A DNA stretch of 64,000 bases from an uncultured Trueperaceae bacterium (GCA_963815215.1 CAWFFU010000011.1:192001-256000); one strand, 5' to 3'. Positions 348-9,629 are shown, numbered from the stretch's first letter. The notes: generated by a model from the sequence alone, not told the origin. Translations and numbers: made by a program.

Positions 348-1907
348 CTACGCGGCGCGCTCGAGGTCCTTGAGGTAGCGCTCGATCGCAGCGTCCGCGT
401 TGCTGCGGAAGTACTCCTTCAGCACCACCGCAATGGTGTCCCCGAGGAGCTCGGCGGCGATGTAGGCGCCCTCCAGGTTGTAGCGCTTGATGGCCTCGGT
501 CGCGACCACGCGGCGGGCATCGTGGGGCTTGAAGCTGTGCCCGTGGCACTCGATGCCGAGCGCCTCCACACCCCGCAGAAACGCCGGGTGCGAGATGGGC
601 TTGTCGGGCTTGTACTCGCTGGCGAACACGTACGGGTGGGTGCGTTCGAAGTCGTCCCCGAGATAGCCGCGCAGGACCTCCCGCCACGCGTCGATCAGGG
701 CTGACGCTTCCTCGCTGTAGGTGCGCTCATAGACGTTGATGCCGTCGCGGCGGTTCGCGACCTTGAGCTCGCTGCCGGCGAACCGCACCCGCCAGCGGCC
801 GTCACGCGTGCGCGTGAGGTTGTGACCCCAGCGCATCTCCTGAAAATTGCGGGCCCGCAACGGGGTCTCCACGGCGAGCCCGTAGAACAAGCCGTAGCGC
901 TTGCGCGCAAACACCTGCCGCTGACGCTTGCTGCCCTCCCCCCGCCAGTAGCGCACGGCGGGTTCCTTGAACGCCCGCCGGGCGACCTCGAGCATGTCGT
1001 CCGGCGTCCAGGCGTCGGGCACACGCCGCTCCGGCGCCCGGCCCTGCTCCCCCGCCGCCAGACGGACCTGCGCGCCGAGGCGGTAGAAGGAGGTCCAGAT
1101 CTCCAGCCCGTCCCCACCCGCTTGCTCGATCCGCTTGCTGGCCGCCAGGTATTTGCTGATCGTGGCTAGTGTGATCGCCGTTTGCTGCACCGAGTCGTAG
1201 CCGCCGTCCGCGTCCTCGGCCAGGTACCAGTCGGCGAACGCGGGGAAGCGCTCCACGTCGACCAGGTCCACCAGGCTGACCTCCGACATGCCGAGCTCGT
1301 CCTTGAGATAGCGGACGAGCGGGCTCACCCGCTTGGCGTGCGCCTCGATGCTGATGGGCTTACACAGGCGCCGCCGCAGGTGCGCCCCCTCGCTCGGCGC
1401 CAGCACTGGCTTCGTCTTCCACGCCTGATAACTCCGCCACTCCTCAGCCAGGGGCTGGGGCCAATCCTCTCGGGCGAGGCGGACACGGATGCGGCGCTTG
1501 GGCCGCGCCTTCAGCACCTGGTTCGGAGTGAGGGAGCGCGCCGCGCGACCGTCACCGTAAACCACATCGCGCACGGCGCGGCAGCACGCCACGAGGTTCT
1601 TGATCGTCTTCTCGCTCGGCTCCACGCGACGCTTCCGGGCGTTCAACAGCTTCGCGCCCAGCTCCACCTTGCCGACCAGCGTCATCACCGGGTCCAACAA
1701 CATTGCGGCGGGTGCCTCGTCGAGGGCCAGGGCGTCACCGGCATGGCCGGCCGCCAGGCACAGGAGCGCCCGCTGGAAGTTGAGCCTGTCGCTATCGCCG
1801 CGGTCCGCGTTCGTCTTGCCCGCCTGGCGGGGGTGCGGCGCCGCCAGAAACTGCATATACGCAGCGCCAAGCGTCTCGGGTTCGGGCTTCTTGCTCTTCA
1901 TGGACAA
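348..1907 (-). CDS. Tyrosine recombinase / site-specific integrase (519 aa)
   Basis: Catalytic motifs PLRARN (R), ELKVA (K), HDARR (HxxR), LLGDT (LGH variant), KEYF (Y); RBS GAGGAGG upstream. Confidence 0.8.
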   Translation of the reverse strand: MSMKSKKPEPETLGAAYMQFLAAPHPRQAGKTNADRGDSDRLNFQRALLCLAAGHAGDALALDEAPAAMLLDPVMTLVGKVELGAKLLNARKRRVEPSEKTIKNLVACCRAVRDVVYGDGRAARSLTPNQVLKARPKRRIRVRLAREDWPQPLAEEWRSYQAWKTKPVLAPSEGAHLRRRLCKPISIEAHAKRVSPLVRYLKDELGMSEVSLVDLVDVERFPAFADWYLAEDADGGYDSVQQTAITLATISKYLAASKRIEQAGGDGLEIWTSFYRLGAQVRLAAGEQGRAPERRVPDAWTPDDMLEVARRAFKEPAVRYWRGEGSKRQRQVFARKRYGLFYGLAVETPLRARNFQEMRWGHNLTRTRDGRWRVRFAGSELKVANRRDGINVYERTYSEEASALIDAWREVLRGYLGDDFERTHPYVFASEYKPDKPISHPAFLRGVEALGIECHGHSFKPHDARRVVATEAIKRYNLEGAYIAAELLGDTIAVVLKEYFRSNADAAIERYLKDLERAA

Positions 1908-2166: not shown

Positions 2167-2394
2167 TCACCCACGCACTTCCGACGGAACCAGAGCAGCC
2201 GCTTCTGCGCGCAGCTTCGGTGCGAGCAGCGCCTCGATCTCCGCGCGCTGCACCAGCGCCTTCCCGGCGTGCCCGTAGCGCGTGAGGTCGCCCGCCCGCA
2301 TCCAGCGGCGGATCGTGCGCGGGTGGCAACGGGCGTACTCCGCTGCCTCCACGACGGTGAGAAAGGGACTCGAACCGACTTCAGATTGCTCCAC
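2167..2394 (-). CDS. Excisionase-like helix-turn-helix protein (~75 aa)
   Basis: FLTVVEAAEYARCHPRTIRRWMRAGDL is a MerR/Xis-type HTH; GTG at 2394 preceded by GAGGAG. Confidence 0.8.
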   Translation of the reverse strand: MEQSEVGSSPFLTVVEAAEYARCHPRTIRRWMRAGDLTRYGHAGKALVQRAEIEALLAPKLRAEAAALVPSEVRG

Positions 2395-2705
2395 TCCGAC
2401 TCTCCTCTCAGGCCGCCAGGTCGCGCGAGGCCGGCGAGACAGGCGCATTCACGCGAAGCGACTTGAGCTCGCTCCATCAACCGCAACAGCAGTCGCGCTC
2501 AACGCGTCACGAGCCTTCGGCCATCACGACTGACCAGACCTCGAACCCAATCCGGCCAACATTGCGACAGTCCACAGCGTCTCACATCGGCGACGTTGGA
2601 TCCGGCAAACAAACTGGATCGCGTCTGACAAGGACCGCAGCGACCATCGTGACCAGCAGGTCAATCACTCGGCCCTTGTACGCAGCATGATACAGTCAGC
2701 CCAAC

Positions 2706-4159: not shown

Positions 4160-5095
4160 CTAATCGGAGGCCAACTCGAGGTAATGGTCCTCCAGAGACT
4201 CACCGAGGTGGAGTCGGAAGGCGCCTCGGGTTTCGGGGAAATTCTCCGACGTGACCCGATATGCCAATTCATACGTTCCGGGCCCAGGTAGGCGGGGCGC
4301 GAAGCGGGAGGACCTGGTGTGAAGGTGGAACAGCGGATCCGCAGGCGCGTCGTGGCGGACGCAGAAGGCGTCGATATCGCGATATGCCTCCGGCGCTATC
4401 GTGGCGTTCGGGGGGTCGTAGGCGCGCCACGAGACCTCGATTGGCTCCACCGGGACGTCTTGCTCGCGAGTCAAGTCCCGGATGTACTGGATGTAGGCGT
4501 AGCAGTTGAGCGCTGGCTTGCTGCGATGGCGATTTCGTACACGGACATGGAACCAGGTTGCCCGGGGGCCATCGGGCTTCTCTAGCCCTACAGTGGCGGG
4601 AGACGCGAACCCTTCCCCCGCCATGGGAAGCTGGAGGCTGAGCTCGTTTCGCCAATCGCAACGCCACTGGGACTTCACCCGTTTGGCGATAGCCTCGGGT
4701 AGCAGCCGTCGATCAGAGAAGGGGATGGGATTGGCCTGGATGGGTTGCAGCACGCCGTCCAGCGGGATCACGCCGTCCTCTTGCCACAACATCGCGGGGA
4801 CCTCGAGGAACGAAGCGATGGCGAGCTCTTGTTGGCAGAACAGCGATCCACGGTGCCTGTGGGGCGGACCGTCAGCGCCTATAAGTTCTTCTCTTCGGAA
4901 GTCGACGAAGAGGAAGTATTCCGTTTCGACGAGCCTTCGGAAGATGTTCTCCCGAAGCCCCAGCAGCGTCTGCTCCTCAACCGCGATATACGGTTCGTAA
5001 TGGAGCGCTTCTAGCCGCGCAGCGATCTCGTTGGCTAGCTGTTTTTCCCCGGTGTCTTCGCGCTGCCCACAGCTGATGAATACGCGAGCCCCCAC
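4160..5095 (-). CDS. TIR-like / nucleoside-deoxyribosyltransferase-fold protein with a beta-rich C-terminal domain; possible anti-phage defence protein
   Basis: N-terminal RVFISCGQ strand, YFLFVD strand and SLFCQQELAIA helix carrying the TIR-type catalytic Glu; leaderless TATTCT-N5-GTG. Confidence 0.6.
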   Translation of the reverse strand: MGARVFISCGQREDTGEKQLANEIAARLEALHYEPYIAVEEQTLLGLRENIFRRLVETEYFLFVDFRREELIGADGPPHRHRGSLFCQQELAIASFLEVPAMLWQEDGVIPLDGVLQPIQANPIPFSDRRLLPEAIAKRVKSQWRCDWRNELSLQLPMAGEGFASPATVGLEKPDGPRATWFHVRVRNRHRSKPALNCYAYIQYIRDLTREQDVPVEPIEVSWRAYDPPNATIAPEAYRDIDAFCVRHDAPADPLFHLHTRSSRFAPRLPGPGTYELAYRVTSENFPETRGAFRLHLGESLEDHYLELASD

Positions 5096-5185
5096 GCTTC
5101 AGAATAGCGGAGGTTCCAGTGCTAGTCGACTGACGTCGCACAACGTCCCTAATGCGACCCCCTCTTGGCAGTAGCGGCTCGGGTG

Positions 5186-5311
5186 GTGGAGCGTGGCACC
5201 CTCAAGCATGCCCAGCGCATCGCCGCGCATGCCAGCCCCAGAACGACGAAGGTGCACGACCGCACCGATGACAGGAATTCCATAGACGAAGTGGAACGAA
5301 TCTTGCTGTGA
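5186..5311 (+). pseudogene. C-terminal remnant of a tyrosine recombinase
   Basis: Translates as VERGTLKHAQRIAAHASPRTTKVHDRTDDRNSIDEVERILL*, matching the GTLExAQxIAAHxSPRTTKLYDR integrase C-terminus; catalytic Tyr replaced by His; no upstream body. Confidence 0.75.
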
Positions 5312-5346
5312 TAGGTCGCGCGAGCCCTCCTGGTCGGCTCGTCTCG

Positions 5347-5436
5347 TGAGGAGTGGCTGAGTGGCCGAAGGCGCCCGCCTAAGAAGCGGGAGACTGCGCA
5401 AGTAGTTCGGGGGTTCGAATCCCTTCTCCTCCGCCA
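5347..5436 (+). tRNA. Atypical class II tRNA: serine-type body with Leu anticodon AAG (5381-5383)
   Basis: Full cloverleaf: acceptor TGAGGAG/CTCCTCC (U1:C72 mismatch); D-arm TGGCTGAGTGGCCGAAGGC; anticodon stem CCCGC/GCGGG with loop CTAAGAA; variable arm GACTGC-GCAA-GTAGTT; T-arm GGGGG-TTCGAAT-CCCTT; G73 and encoded CCA. Confidence 0.85.
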
Positions 5437-5439
5437 GCT

Positions 5440-5462
5440 GGGGCGCCCCACTAGGGCGCCCC
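5440..5462. terminator. GC hairpin between the atypical tRNA and the convergent membrane-protein gene
   Basis: GGGGCGCCC-CACTA-GGGCGCCCC, 3 nt after the CCA. Confidence 0.55.
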
Positions 5463-5497
5463 CGGCGCGTTATAGGGTTGCGCCCCACTTGACGAGG

Positions 5498-6130
5498 CTA
5501 TTTCGTGATGATGACAGCTCCGTCGTAGGCCTTCGGCATGGGCGCTGGGTTGGGGAACACCGTGGGGGCGTCGTTGATGAATAGGCCCAGGAGGTCGCCC
5601 TCGGAGAGTGACTCGCCCGAATAGCCGAGGTCCTTGCGCAGGATGTAGAGGAGGCGTTCGAAGCCACCAATGAGGTCACGACCAAGCGCTTCTTGTGGGG
5701 CTTGCTCGTTGAGCCGGGCAGCGGACTGCGTGCGCCACCGAGACCACTCCCGCACAGCGTCATCAGATGCCCAGAGGATGAGGTCTGGCGTAATCTTGGC
5801 GAAAGCGTCCTGCAGCCGGTTGGGGGTCATGACCTTGTTTCCCGAGCCGGGCATCAGGGTCGCCATGAACGTCTTGACAAGCTCGGCGTATACGGGGTTG
5901 CGTTTTTCGCGTAGCTCTTCCTCGATTTGGAGCTTGCTTTGTTGAATTCTCCCGTTCACGTTGGCAATGACTGCAGCGAGAACGAGGGCGCCCGCCGAAG
6001 CTGAGCCGACGAGGATGTTGGGGTCAAAGGGCTTTCCTGAGATCCAGGCATAGACCAACCACGCCGGCGTCAAAGCAAGCAAGACGAGAGCGACGTACGG
6101 AAGGGCACGGATGAGCCAGTTGCCTTGCAT
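5498..6130 (-). CDS. Hypothetical membrane protein with two N-terminal TM helices (~210 aa)
   Basis: Hydrophobic segments ALPYVALVLLALTPAWLVYAWI and ILVGSASAGALVLAAVIA; start placed at ATG 6130 behind TACACT. Confidence 0.65.
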   Translation of the reverse strand: MQGNWLIRALPYVALVLLALTPAWLVYAWISGKPFDPNILVGSASAGALVLAAVIANVNGRIQQSKLQIEEELREKRNPVYAELVKTFMATLMPGSGNKVMTPNRLQDAFAKITPDLILWASDDAVREWSRWRTQSAARLNEQAPQEALGRDLIGGFERLLYILRKDLGYSGESLSEGDLLGLFINDAPTVFPNPAPMPKAYDGAVIITK

Positions 6131-6346
6131 TTGGCTCAAGTGTACCGGACGCGCGCGCCAGTTGCGGAGGAGCCCGGGTGTGGTCCCGCCGAGAGGTGCG
6201 AGGTAGTCGGTGCGTGCCTTGTAGGAGCGATTATCCAAGGTATGGACCCAGTCAATCTTGGCGGAACCGTGCGACAAGAGAAGTTGTCGGGTGGCCCAAT
6301 ACAGGGCCAACCCGGCACTTGGTATCCAGTTGGGCCCGACCGCTGC

Positions 6347-7301: not shown

Positions 7302-7514
7302 GTGACCAGCCTGTTGACGGCGGAGGAAGTAGCCGCGCGCATGAGCATCACAAAGGCAAGGGCATATGAGCTCGCGCGGCTCGGCATCGTCCCCTGTGTC
7401 AGGCTCGGGCGCCAGGTCAGGTTTGACCCGCTCAAGATCCAGGCGCTCATCGAATCCGGGGGGCAAGCGCTGCCCGGCGGATGGCGGAGTAGCGCCTCCG
7501 AAATCGACGCCTAA
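7302..7514 (+). CDS. Excisionase-family DNA-binding protein
   Basis: LLTAEEVAARMSITKARAYELARLGIVPCVRLGRQVRF; RBS GAGGTG. Confidence 0.85.
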   Translation: MTSLLTAEEVAARMSITKARAYELARLGIVPCVRLGRQVRFDPLKIQALIESGGQALPGGWRSSASEIDA

Positions 7515-7992: not shown

Positions 7993-9231
7993 GTGAACCA
8001 ATACGAACGGGTGGATGAAGGCGTTAGCGCTCACGGCGGCCAAATCCTGAAGCATGTCCAGGACCCGAAGCGCTGGCTGGTCAAGGTGTTCATCGGGCGG
8101 GATGCCAAAGGCCGGAAGAAGTATGCCTCGAAAGTAGTTCACGGAACGAAGCGCGAGGCGCGGGCGGTGCTGATCGAGTTGCAGCAGCAGAAGCATCATG
8201 GCCGGCTGGCACCGCGCGGGGCCACCCGTCTCGCCGACCTCGTGGAGGAGTGGGAGCAGCACAAGGCCCGCGACGTCTCGCCGCGCACGCTCAAGGGCTA
8301 TGTCGACGCCCTCCACTGGTACGTGCTTCCCACCCTCGGTCGCCGCCGCTTGCAGGACATCAGCCTTCGTGAGATCGACGCGCTCTATGGGGACATGGCC
8401 GCCGGCACCTTGCCGCCTCCCGAGGCCAACGAGGAAGGCCGTATCGAGGGGTGGCAGGGTGGCGCGCTGAGCGCCCGGACCATCCGGCTTACCCACGTCG
8501 CGCTTTCCCAGGCACTCAAGCAAGCGGTCAAGTGGGGGCTCATCGCATTCAACCCGGCCGCCGAGGCGACGCTGCCGACCAACAAGCCAAAGGAAATGCG
8601 ACCCCTGACGCTGACCGAGCGTGAAGCCTTCATCGCCGCCAGCCAGGGCAGCTTCCACCACCCGCTGTTCCTCACGTTGCTAGGTACGGGTCTGCGCCCC
8701 GGAGAAGCCTGCGGCTTGATGTGGTCCGATCTGGACTTCGCCAACGAACGCATCCACGTTCGGCGCGCTGTTACCCGGGGCGCAGACGGCCAGCGCATGA
8801 CCGCTCACCCGAAGACCTCCAAGAGCCGCCGCGCCCTACCGATGTTCGACCTGCGCGACCCGCTGCTAGCCCACCACGCGTGGCAGACCGAGCGCGGCCT
8901 CGATGCCGGCGGCTACGTCTTCACCAACCAGGACGGCGGCATGCTGGCGCCGTGGGCCTTCAACAAGCGCGAGCTCCTACGCATCGGGACGGCCGCAGGC
9001 ATCGACTTCCCCATCACCCCCTACACCTTCCGGCACACCTTCGCGACCGTTCATCTGCAGCTCGGTACCCCTCTGAAGGTCGTGAGCGAGTGGCTCGGCC
9101 ACTCCACCATCCAGCAGACGGCCAACACCTATCAGCATGTCTCCGACGAGATCGCGACCGATTACGCGGAGCGCTACCTTCAGCGCCTCACGGAAGCCAC
9201 GCAATCAGGGGCCAAGACCGCACCAAATTGA
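7993..9231 (+). CDS. Phage/ICE-type tyrosine integrase
   Basis: N-terminal arm-binding region; TGLRPGE, KTSKS, YTFRHTFAT, LGHS and YQH motifs; RBS GAGGAGG; adjacent to tRNA 3' end. Confidence 0.95.
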   Translation: MNQYERVDEGVSAHGGQILKHVQDPKRWLVKVFIGRDAKGRKKYASKVVHGTKREARAVLIELQQQKHHGRLAPRGATRLADLVEEWEQHKARDVSPRTLKGYVDALHWYVLPTLGRRRLQDISLREIDALYGDMAAGTLPPPEANEEGRIEGWQGGALSARTIRLTHVALSQALKQAVKWGLIAFNPAAEATLPTNKPKEMRPLTLTEREAFIAASQGSFHHPLFLTLLGTGLRPGEACGLMWSDLDFANERIHVRRAVTRGADGQRMTAHPKTSKSRRALPMFDLRDPLLAHHAWQTERGLDAGGYVFTNQDGGMLAPWAFNKRELLRIGTAAGIDFPITPYTFRHTFATVHLQLGTPLKVVSEWLGHSTIQQTANTYQHVSDEIATDYAERYLQRLTEATQSGAKTAPN

Positions 9232-9321: not shown

Positions 9322-9398
<77 letters not shown>

Positions 9399-9539: not shown

Positions 9540-9629
9540 TGGCGGAGGGTGAGGGATTCGAACCCCCGGACGGGTCGCCCCGTCAACGGTTTTCAAGACC
9601 GCCGCTTTCGACCACTCAGCCAACCCTCC
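9540..9629 (-). tRNA. tRNA-Ser(TGA)
   Basis: GGAGGGTTGGCTGAGTGGTCGAAAGCGGCGGTCTTGAAAACCG...GGTTCGAATCCCTCACCCTCCGCCA. Confidence 0.97.

Follow-up and report, generated by a model that had tools for sequence, protein, structure and literature searches.

The window, a 64,000-nucleotide stretch of the genome of an uncultured Trueperaceae bacterium (GCA_963815215.1 CAWFFU010000011.1:192001-256000), takes in part of a mobile genomic island that holds a tRNA gene with a serine-type body, the leucine anticodon AAG and an acceptor stem open at its outermost pair. The pairing of a foreign leucine anticodon with an open acceptor end recurs in other serine-bodied tRNAs. Our best reading, put forward tentatively, is that the gene encodes a throttled serine-accepting decoder of CUU, which would work much as an allo-tRNA does without being one. 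The candidate gene and the features needed to follow its fold are listed here.

5347..5436, plus strand: candidate class-II tRNA gene of 90 nt, with anticodon AAG, G73 and an encoded CCA (ARAGORN; Rfam)
5381..5383, plus strand: anticodon AAG of the candidate, in the loop C-U-A-A-G-A-A with U33, A37 and A38 (sequence, ARAGORN)
5347..5347, plus strand: U1 of the candidate, unpaired with C72 at 5432 (NC line of the cmscan and cmsearch alignments)
5433, plus strand: G73 of the candidate, followed by CCA at 5434-5436 (sequence)
5440..5462, plus strand: G+C-rich hairpin with a 9-bp stem and a 5-nt loop, 4 nt 3' of the candidate CCA (sequence)
9540..9629, minus strand: host tRNA-Ser(TGA), also of 90 nt and 73% identical to the candidate (ARAGORN, Rfam)

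ARAGORN reports four tRNA genes within the window, the candidate among them, and the Rfam tRNA model RF00005 matches the candidate from end to end at 43.9 bits (gathering threshold 29, E 4.8e-06). The acceptor stem consists of U1xC72, G2:C71, A3:U70, G4:C69, G5:C68, A6:U67 and G7:C66, with 1:72 as the sole non-standard pair of the cloverleaf in both the Rfam and the Ser-model alignments. End-to-end alignment to the same covariance models gives a 7/5 acceptor/T layout. The D arm has a 3-bp stem and a D loop as in ordinary tRNA-Ser, CCCGC pairs with GCGGG in the anticodon stem, six pairs (two of them G:U) make up the variable stem, which has a GCAA cap and a direct junction to C48, and two of the five pairs of the T stem are G:U. 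While all three positions of AAG differ from the host Ser anticodons TGA, GCT, CGA and GGA, the loop flanks C32, U33, A37 and A38 are kept, and no conserved base of the D loop or T loop has been lost. The RNAfold energy is undistinguished (z -0.45), so the structural support comes from the covariance models and not from energy. The first-pass annotation, made from this DNA alone, had described a complete 90-nt cloverleaf with CCA in the layout of the host tRNA-Ser(TGA), and every detail that it listed was correct. The D-arm and T-arm strings that it gave as common to the two tRNAs agree with the sequence, the anticodon and variable stems pair as it stated, and its Ser-type identity elements (G73, G2:C71 and the long variable arm), AAG anticodon and A37 are all present.

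To place the body among isotypes, covariance models were built from 25 distinct Ser tRNAs of relatives (R1) and from 17 distinct Leu tRNAs of relatives (R2), with the following scores.

Candidate: Ser model 79.3 bits, Leu model 40.9 bits
Host Ser tRNAs: Ser model 104.9 and 102.7 bits, Leu model 40.8 and 42.2 bits
Host Leu tRNAs: Ser model 52.2 and 48.1 bits, Leu model 111 bits

From the difference between 79.3 and 40.9 bits we conclude that the candidate body is Ser-type and not Leu-type, its long variable arm and D arm being in Ser layout. This is the outcome that had been predicted for a serine body with a leucine anticodon. The candidate has U1xC72 where tRNA-Ser usually has a fully paired acceptor stem including G1:C72, and AAG where a Ser anticodon (NGA or GCU) would stand; A73 and the Leu-type D arm and variable arm that characterise tRNA-Leu are absent from it. 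The host set of Leu tRNAs is complete (CAG, CAA, TAG, TAA and GAG, all with A73) and so is its set of four Ser tRNAs, which makes the candidate a surplus tRNA. It might nevertheless be proposed that the gene is an ordinary leucine tRNA serving CUU decoding of the island genes, as it has the AAG anticodon, as CUU has roughly double its genome-wide frequency in these genes (6.9 against 3.5 per 1000) and as true Leu(AAG) tRNAs occur in phage arrays and in Bacilli (PMC13249217). We find this scarcely credible, because the candidate has G73 and not A73, a D arm and variable arm in Ser layout, and a Leu-model score that is level with those of the host Ser tRNAs, far from the 111 bits of host Leu tRNAs or the 63-75 bits of Leu-type AAG tRNAs. 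As a component of the throttled-decoder reading, and with the same reserve, we favour descent from a serine tRNA whose anticodon was changed to AAG and which is now carried as island cargo.

The first-pass annotation called the gene island-borne, and the surroundings bear this out. A perfect 45-bp direct repeat of the 3' end of tRNA-Arg(ACG) is present at 9322-9366 and at G000:C11:169493-169537, and a tyrosine integrase gene lies at 7993-9231. As the left copy of the repeat is 31.9 kb away, outside the window, the island measures roughly 32 kb, and the candidate sits about 4 kb inside it. The relevant features in the window are as follows.

9322..9398, minus strand: tRNA-Arg(ACG), the integration target, whose 3' 45 nt (9322-9366) are the right repeat copy (ARAGORN, Rfam)
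7993..9231, plus strand: tyrosine integrase of the island (Pfam Phage_integrase 80.3 bits; phrog_1 integrase 223.9 bits)
7302..7514, plus strand: excisionase-like HTH_17 gene of the island, L233:13302-13514 (Pfam PF12728, phrog_66)
348..1907, minus strand: second, weak integrase-like gene in the island, 519 aa (Pfam Phage_integrase 30 bits)
2167-2448, minus strand: second excisionase-like gene, near the weak integrase-like gene (HTH_17, phrog_66)
4160..5095, minus strand: divergent neighbour of the candidate, 311 aa, of a widespread unnamed family (448 homologues; AF2 model)
5498..6310, minus strand: convergent neighbour of the candidate, 270 aa, without known family (family searches)

Among the island ORFs scanned against PHROGs there was no phage structural or replication family, and the element therefore appears to be a genomic island and not a prophage. 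Its G+C content is 61-67% in the part that lies within the window, against about 70% further along the window. In a genome of the same genus (G001), a 541-bp segment (L009) is 92% identical to the 3' end of the island integrase and lies beside that genome's own tRNA-Arg, which points to tRNA-Arg(ACG) as an integration hot spot in the genus. Besides the candidate, the island cargo includes type I restriction-modification genes, assorted genes and a tRNA-Glu(CTC).

The candidate occupies a 400-bp gap between two minus-strand ORFs and is oriented against both. PADLOC and NCBIfam searches returned nothing for the nine ORFs around it and no toxin family beside it, and neither neighbour has a viral relative. 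The 311-aa neighbour has 448 homologues at E<=1e-5, no Pfam match, and no counterpart in 151 Acidobacteriota genomes. In its AF2 model (pLDDT 88.9), residues 1-145 align with 7o62, 7un8 and 4ohr at Z scores of 13.7, 13.4 and 13.2, so that the N-terminal domain is predicted to adopt a nucleoside 2'-deoxyribosyltransferase / TIR / MilB fold, with a modelled beta-sandwich after it. The protein may be an undescribed defence-type effector.

Searches for homologues were made in several collections. Among 60 relatives there is no close copy of the candidate, only ordinary tRNA-Ser at 70-75% identity, and conservation of the candidate gene itself thus cannot be shown; the nearest Ser tRNA in the whole sample is 79% identical. 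Four pattern scans of viral contigs also gave no close copy, the first having two matches (both ordinary tRNA-Ser(TGA)), the second 48 matches of which one is a tRNA (L146, Leu-type), and two further scans none. On plasmids, 18 records were retrieved, all at 80% identity or less. A scan of genome contigs with the anticodon left free yielded at least 121 matches and, among the matches listed, 120 Ser anticodons and one CAA. The Acidobacteriaceae MAG G061 holds a tRNA with the anticodon CAA (L125/L242, G061:C13:330726-330815) that scores 73.6 bits with the Ser model and 34.2 bits with the Leu model. Beyond position 70 its 3' acceptor strand is diverged and lacks CCA; alongside it, the genome encodes a normal Leu(CAA) and four ordinary Ser tRNAs. 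A single match in 401 Acidobacteriaceae genomes, located in an unpublished genome, was discarded as chance-like, the reversed control pattern having matched four times.

A metagenome scan with a pattern for the AAG loop and T arm detected 12 loci, which were assigned as follows.

Five Ser-type AAG tRNAs (L193, L194, L197, L198 and L200), with 66-75 bits for the Ser model against 28-40 bits for the Leu model
Four Leu-type tRNAs in phage-like tRNA arrays
Two fragments
One ambiguous sequence (L192)

The pattern demanded AAG but not the acceptor stem, and the recurrence of AAG in these analogues is therefore partly by construction. For comparison, the Leu-type AAG tRNAs L190, L191, L199 and L146 from viral and metagenome contigs score 63-75 bits with the Leu model against 44-54 bits with the Ser model. 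Three of the analogues adjoin mobile or toxin-type genes: an IS200-type transposase lies upstream of L198, a Fic/DOC gene upstream of L200, and a DUF3800 gene and an IS1595-type transposase near L193. A long hairpin and T run follow directly 3' of the CCA in L194, L198 and L200. The first-pass annotation had proposed conservation of the neighbouring genes as a check, and here no ORF was found in common between the island and eight of the 12 metagenome loci (L192-L198 and L200). As a separate observation, DUF3800 genes (L193:1558-2586 and L195:750-1448) abut two distinct metagenome AAG-loop tRNA-like sequences, and in L193 the end of this gene overlaps the diverged 3' end of the tRNA.

The acceptor ends of these tRNAs were then compared with those of ordinary serine tRNAs, with U8 and the T loop as anchors for the acceptor strands and with the exclusion of duplicates, tRNAs below 82 nt and those lacking either anchor. 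The acceptor top is fully paired in 98 of 99 unique Ser-anticodon tRNAs. The seven Ser-bodied Leu-anticodon tRNAs other than the candidate (six with AAG, the ambiguous L192 included, and L125 with CAA) have neither 1:72 nor 2:71; in the candidate, which was counted separately, only 1:72 is missing. Six of the eight have changes on the 5' strand alone, at position 1 in the candidate and at positions 1-2 in L192, L194, L197, L198 and L200, with C71-C72-G73-CCA retained on the 3' side. The other two, L193 and L125, have no CCA and a 3' strand that is diverged beyond position 70; the loss of their acceptor top in this way looks like truncation. The recurrent link of a foreign anticodon with an open acceptor end is new and specific. 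A full-text literature search, with subscription journals outside its coverage, turned up no account of a bacterial tRNA-Ser that combines canonical shape and an anticodon for Leu, and likewise none of the acceptor-top rule. The only exception among the 99 Ser-anticodon tRNAs is a tRNA-Ser(GCT)-like sequence from a Myxococcota MAG (L067), which has C1xC72 as a mismatch and whose D arm is unusual.

Outside the acceptor top, the AAG tRNAs are largely paired. In the alignment of the seven AAG tRNAs 91% of cells pair compared to 72% in shuffles, none of 500 shuffles reaching the observed value, and both-side changes are seen in 16 of 26 pairs. Helices 2-5 are 90-100% paired, while 1:72 forms in none of six and 2:71 in one of six. 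As this covariation may come from different Ser ancestors, it indicates that each gene is undecayed and not that it was selected after gaining AAG. The first-pass annotation had taken the pairing of the candidate's anticodon and variable stems as a sign of structural selection instead of decay. In a FastTree of 112 sequences, one clade (support 0.978) unites L194, L200, L197 and L198; the closest sequences to the candidate are two Myxococcales tRNA-Ser(TGA), and L193 is closest to a tRNA-Ser(GGA). AAG tRNAs hence fall in at least three places among the Ser tRNAs, although trees of such short sequences (~90 nt) are weak. The tree mask covered U33, A34 and A35 and left G36 in; as this base could only draw AAG sequences together, their separation is a conservative result.

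These comparisons also bear on whether the candidate is a silent relic, that is an island-acquired copy of a tRNA-Ser whose acceptor end has been disabled and which is drifting, with AAG without function. We regard this as unlikely, though it deserves serious consideration. The candidate was found in a single genome when 60 relatives were searched, its scores fall short of those of host tRNAs (43.9 against 58.8-69.9 bits with Rfam, 79.3 against 103-105 bits with R1), it contains several G:U pairs, and a consensus scan of 5050-5650 detected no sigma-70 promoter and no terminator. L193 and L125 look 3'-truncated, and pseudo-allo-tRNAs are known (PMC5389517). Several features speak against drift. 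First, the candidate is at most 79% identical to any sampled Ser tRNA, yet all its helices pair except for 1:72, and the conserved bases of its D loop and T loop are intact. Second, all three anticodon bases have changed with C32, U33, A37 and A38 kept around them, a place where drift would not concentrate its changes. Lastly, the same two features recur in separate lineages. With the acceptor top open in all eight Ser-bodied Leu-anticodon tRNAs and their other helices paired, U1xC72 does not look, as judged from these sequences, like the early pseudogenisation that the first-pass annotation had considered.

We return to the throttled-decoder reading and to how such a tRNA might act. We infer that the candidate is transcribed, and postulate that the host's one anticodon-blind SerRS would read its long variable arm, G73 and G2:C71 and charge it with serine. 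The charged tRNA would then read CUU, and if the host TadA were to convert A34 to inosine, CUC and CUA would be read too, with Ser replacing Leu at these codons. In E. coli, SerRS uses G2:C71 as an identity pair, and in initiator tRNA mispairing at 1:72 makes EF-Tu binding weaker. On these grounds the open acceptor top is taken as a throttle: the open 1:72 would be part of a recurrent design and not damage, rendering miscoding tolerable because charging or EF-Tu binding is weakened or 5' processing is altered. The argument cuts both ways, since the 1:72 mismatch, and the loss of G2:C71 in the analogues, may abolish charging instead of reducing it. The genome has a single serS (G000:C3:734542-735801), off the island; it was the one match above cut-off, and the island ORFs scanned contain no synthetase domain. 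A single TadA-like gene, also off the island, scores 148.8 bits, just below the family cut-off of 150.

Published work provides precedents for parts of this scheme. SerRS does not read the anticodon (PMC5389517, PMC11415595), and an allo-tRNA(GAG) inserts Ser at CUC in E. coli, where it is toxic and growth stopped (PMC5389517). Streptococcal TadA deaminates tRNA-Leu(AAG) in vitro, and AAG without inosine is expected to read CUU only (PMC13249217). Codon usage, computed from 1630 long ORFs of the genome, gives 3.5 CUU and 39.4 CUC per 1000, such that the load would be light without inosine and heavy with it. CUU is thus rare in the host, as the first-pass annotation had expected. The idea that the tRNA would harm invaders alone fits badly, as the island genes themselves use CUU at about twice the host rate (6.9 per 1000). 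The overall proposal of a mistranslating tRNA is partly supported, by the Ser body, the rarity of CUU and the precedent of the allo-tRNA(GAG) as reported in PMC5389517; U1xC72 looks unlike early decay, and charging, expression, I34 and a role in phage poisoning or addiction are predictions.

In the region 5050-5650, where the consensus scan was made, the hairpin at 5440..5462 lacks a T run and is only a possible terminator or processing signal. The sequencing runs that hold the stretch include no RNA run. Two salt-marsh metagenome DNA runs gave short low-depth contigs of the island, one of them covering 5307-5457 (151 nt) with two differing letters; these runs may be the assembly's own source, and they lend no independent support to the anticodon. 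Separately, MFE folds suggested a 5' leader that sequesters the 5' half of the tRNA. This was rejected, as the duplex energies (z -1.74 to +0.88 at seven loci) were no better than those of shuffled leaders or of 176 ordinary Ser tRNA loci.

If the open top blocks charging or EF-Tu binding altogether, the product could be a tRNA-shaped RNA that is made but delivers no amino acid. It might act as an uncharged A-site reader of CUU/CUC that signals starvation, as an RNA antitoxin or decoy against a toxin aimed at tRNAs, or as some other regulator that mobile elements carry. We consider this a minority possibility that merits attention. It would account for an acceptor top open in eight of eight Ser-bodied Leu-anticodon tRNAs with the rest of the cloverleaf kept, and for analogues adjoining a Fic/DOC gene and transposases. 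The candidate itself adjoins a protein with a modelled TIR/NDT fold, typical of defence loci. Mukai et al. (PMC5389517) describe translation-inactive allo-tRNA(UAU) forms near toxin-antitoxin genes, and irregular tRNAs that are charged yet non-decoding. However, G2:C71, G73, CCA and every tertiary-contact base are retained in the candidate, beyond the needs of a mere decoy, no protein partner is conserved between the island and L192-L198 and L200, the neighbours are without viral relatives, and PADLOC and NCBIfam detected no toxin family beside it.

The position of the changes raises another possibility, that of conditional activation. Mismatches on the 5' strand only, facing an intact 3' strand, are the signature of 5'-edited tRNAs, and in the candidate, L192, L194, L197, L198 and L200 the mismatches indeed stem from the 5' strand alone, within acceptor pairs 1-3. 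The mismatched 5' nucleotides would be removed and rebuilt against C71/C72, as by Thg1-like 3'-5' polymerases in mitochondrial 5' tRNA editing, restoring G1:C72 and G2:C71 and switching serylation on. Six of the eight cases have this form, with changes at positions 1-2 and the C71-C72-G73-CCA strand retained. Against this, PF04446 (Thg1) has no match in the host genome G000 (97% complete) or in G061, the Acidobacteriaceae source of L125, where a control genome was matched, and no other repair enzyme was identified. We therefore hold such activation to be very improbable.

A broader proposal, which we regard as doubtful, takes in all these tRNAs. Ser-bodied AAG/CAA tRNAs of canonical shape, with the acceptor top deliberately opened, would form a recurrent, undescribed class of mobile-element cargo that originated on several occasions, from different serine tRNAs. 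With 1:72 and 2:71 open as a safety lock, a toxic Leu-to-Ser miscoder would be kept at low dose or off until 5' processing or repair, and islands would gain a switch for remodelling or poisoning the proteome.

To our knowledge, natural bacterial tRNAs with mismatched body and anticodon are known from only a few families (allo-tRNAs and tRNAProX). Like the candidate, allo-tRNAs such as the Silvibacterium bohemicum (8/4) allo-tRNA(GAG) combine Ser identity elements with an anticodon of the Leu CUN family (Mukai et al. 2017, PMC5389517). The allo-tRNA(GAG) has the loop context C-U-N-A-G-A-A in common with the candidate, and both kinds occur in mobile or toxin-antitoxin neighbourhoods and are predicted to place Ser at Leu codons (PMC5389517). 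Their architecture differs: allo-tRNAs have an 8/4 or 9/3 acceptor/T layout and a tRNA-Sec-like long D stem with a tetraloop, whereas the candidate has 7/5, a 3-bp D stem and an ordinary Ser D loop, and the acceptor tops of the allo-tRNA(GAG) listed are fully paired, unlike those of the candidate and its analogues (PMC5389517). In one supplementary file of this paper, AAG has no whole-word match against seven for GAG, and the 10-letter loop motif is absent. By analogy, the candidate would resemble the Leu-anticodon allo-tRNAs in function while its 7/5 layout and ordinary Ser D arm set it outside that group.

Other systems have single features in common with the candidate. The tRNAProX of Streptomyces and Kitasatospora, with its ProRSx, has a disagreement of body and anticodon and A34, which all tRNAProX mistranslators are reported to carry; it differs in its Pro-type body, its A33 and its dedicated co-encoded synthetase, where the candidate has U33 and no extra synthetase (PMC11415595). 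A34, common to both, is rare in bacteria outside Arg(ACG). The tRNA-Ser(CAG) of CUG-clade yeasts is, like the candidate, a Ser tRNA with a Leu CUN anticodon, which it could take because SerRS ignores the anticodon, and its CUG-Ser2 form has A37 as well (PMC11415595). The yeast tRNA is eukaryotic and chromosomal and represents a fixed code change, whereas the candidate is strain-specific island cargo in a host with all its CUN Leu tRNAs present. Lastly, the tRNA-Leu(AAG/IAG) of Lactobacillales and of phage arrays has the AAG anticodon, and TadA can make I34 on such a loop (PMC13249217), but these genuine leucine tRNAs have a Leu body, A73 and a Leu D arm, the reverse of the candidate.

The candidate would extend the mismatch of body and anticodon to the ordinary 7/5 serine tRNA shape, on a genomic island, and adds a structural rule by which a foreign anticodon goes with an unpaired acceptor top. 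If this rule holds database-wide, it would show by what means a miscoding tRNA can be tolerated, dosed or gated by cells or mobile elements, and simple constructs, comparing the wild type with repaired 1:72 and 2:71, could probe natural regulated mistranslation. Should the candidate prove silent, an isotype-anticodon mismatch alone would be insufficient to call a mistranslator.

Two further parts of the island cargo are of note. Its other tRNA, Glu(CTC) at G000:C11:174324-174399 (L232:6324-6396), to the left of the window, scores 43.8 bits with Rfam; it is the only Glu(CTC) of the genome by ARAGORN, and its T loop looks one base short by eye. The type I restriction-modification genes (L233:341-1666, L232:16487-17905 and L233:4079-5376), which lie partly to the left of the window, seem split, with the N- and C-terminal parts of HsdR on separate ORFs ~2.4 kb apart and HsdM as two adjacent ORFs.
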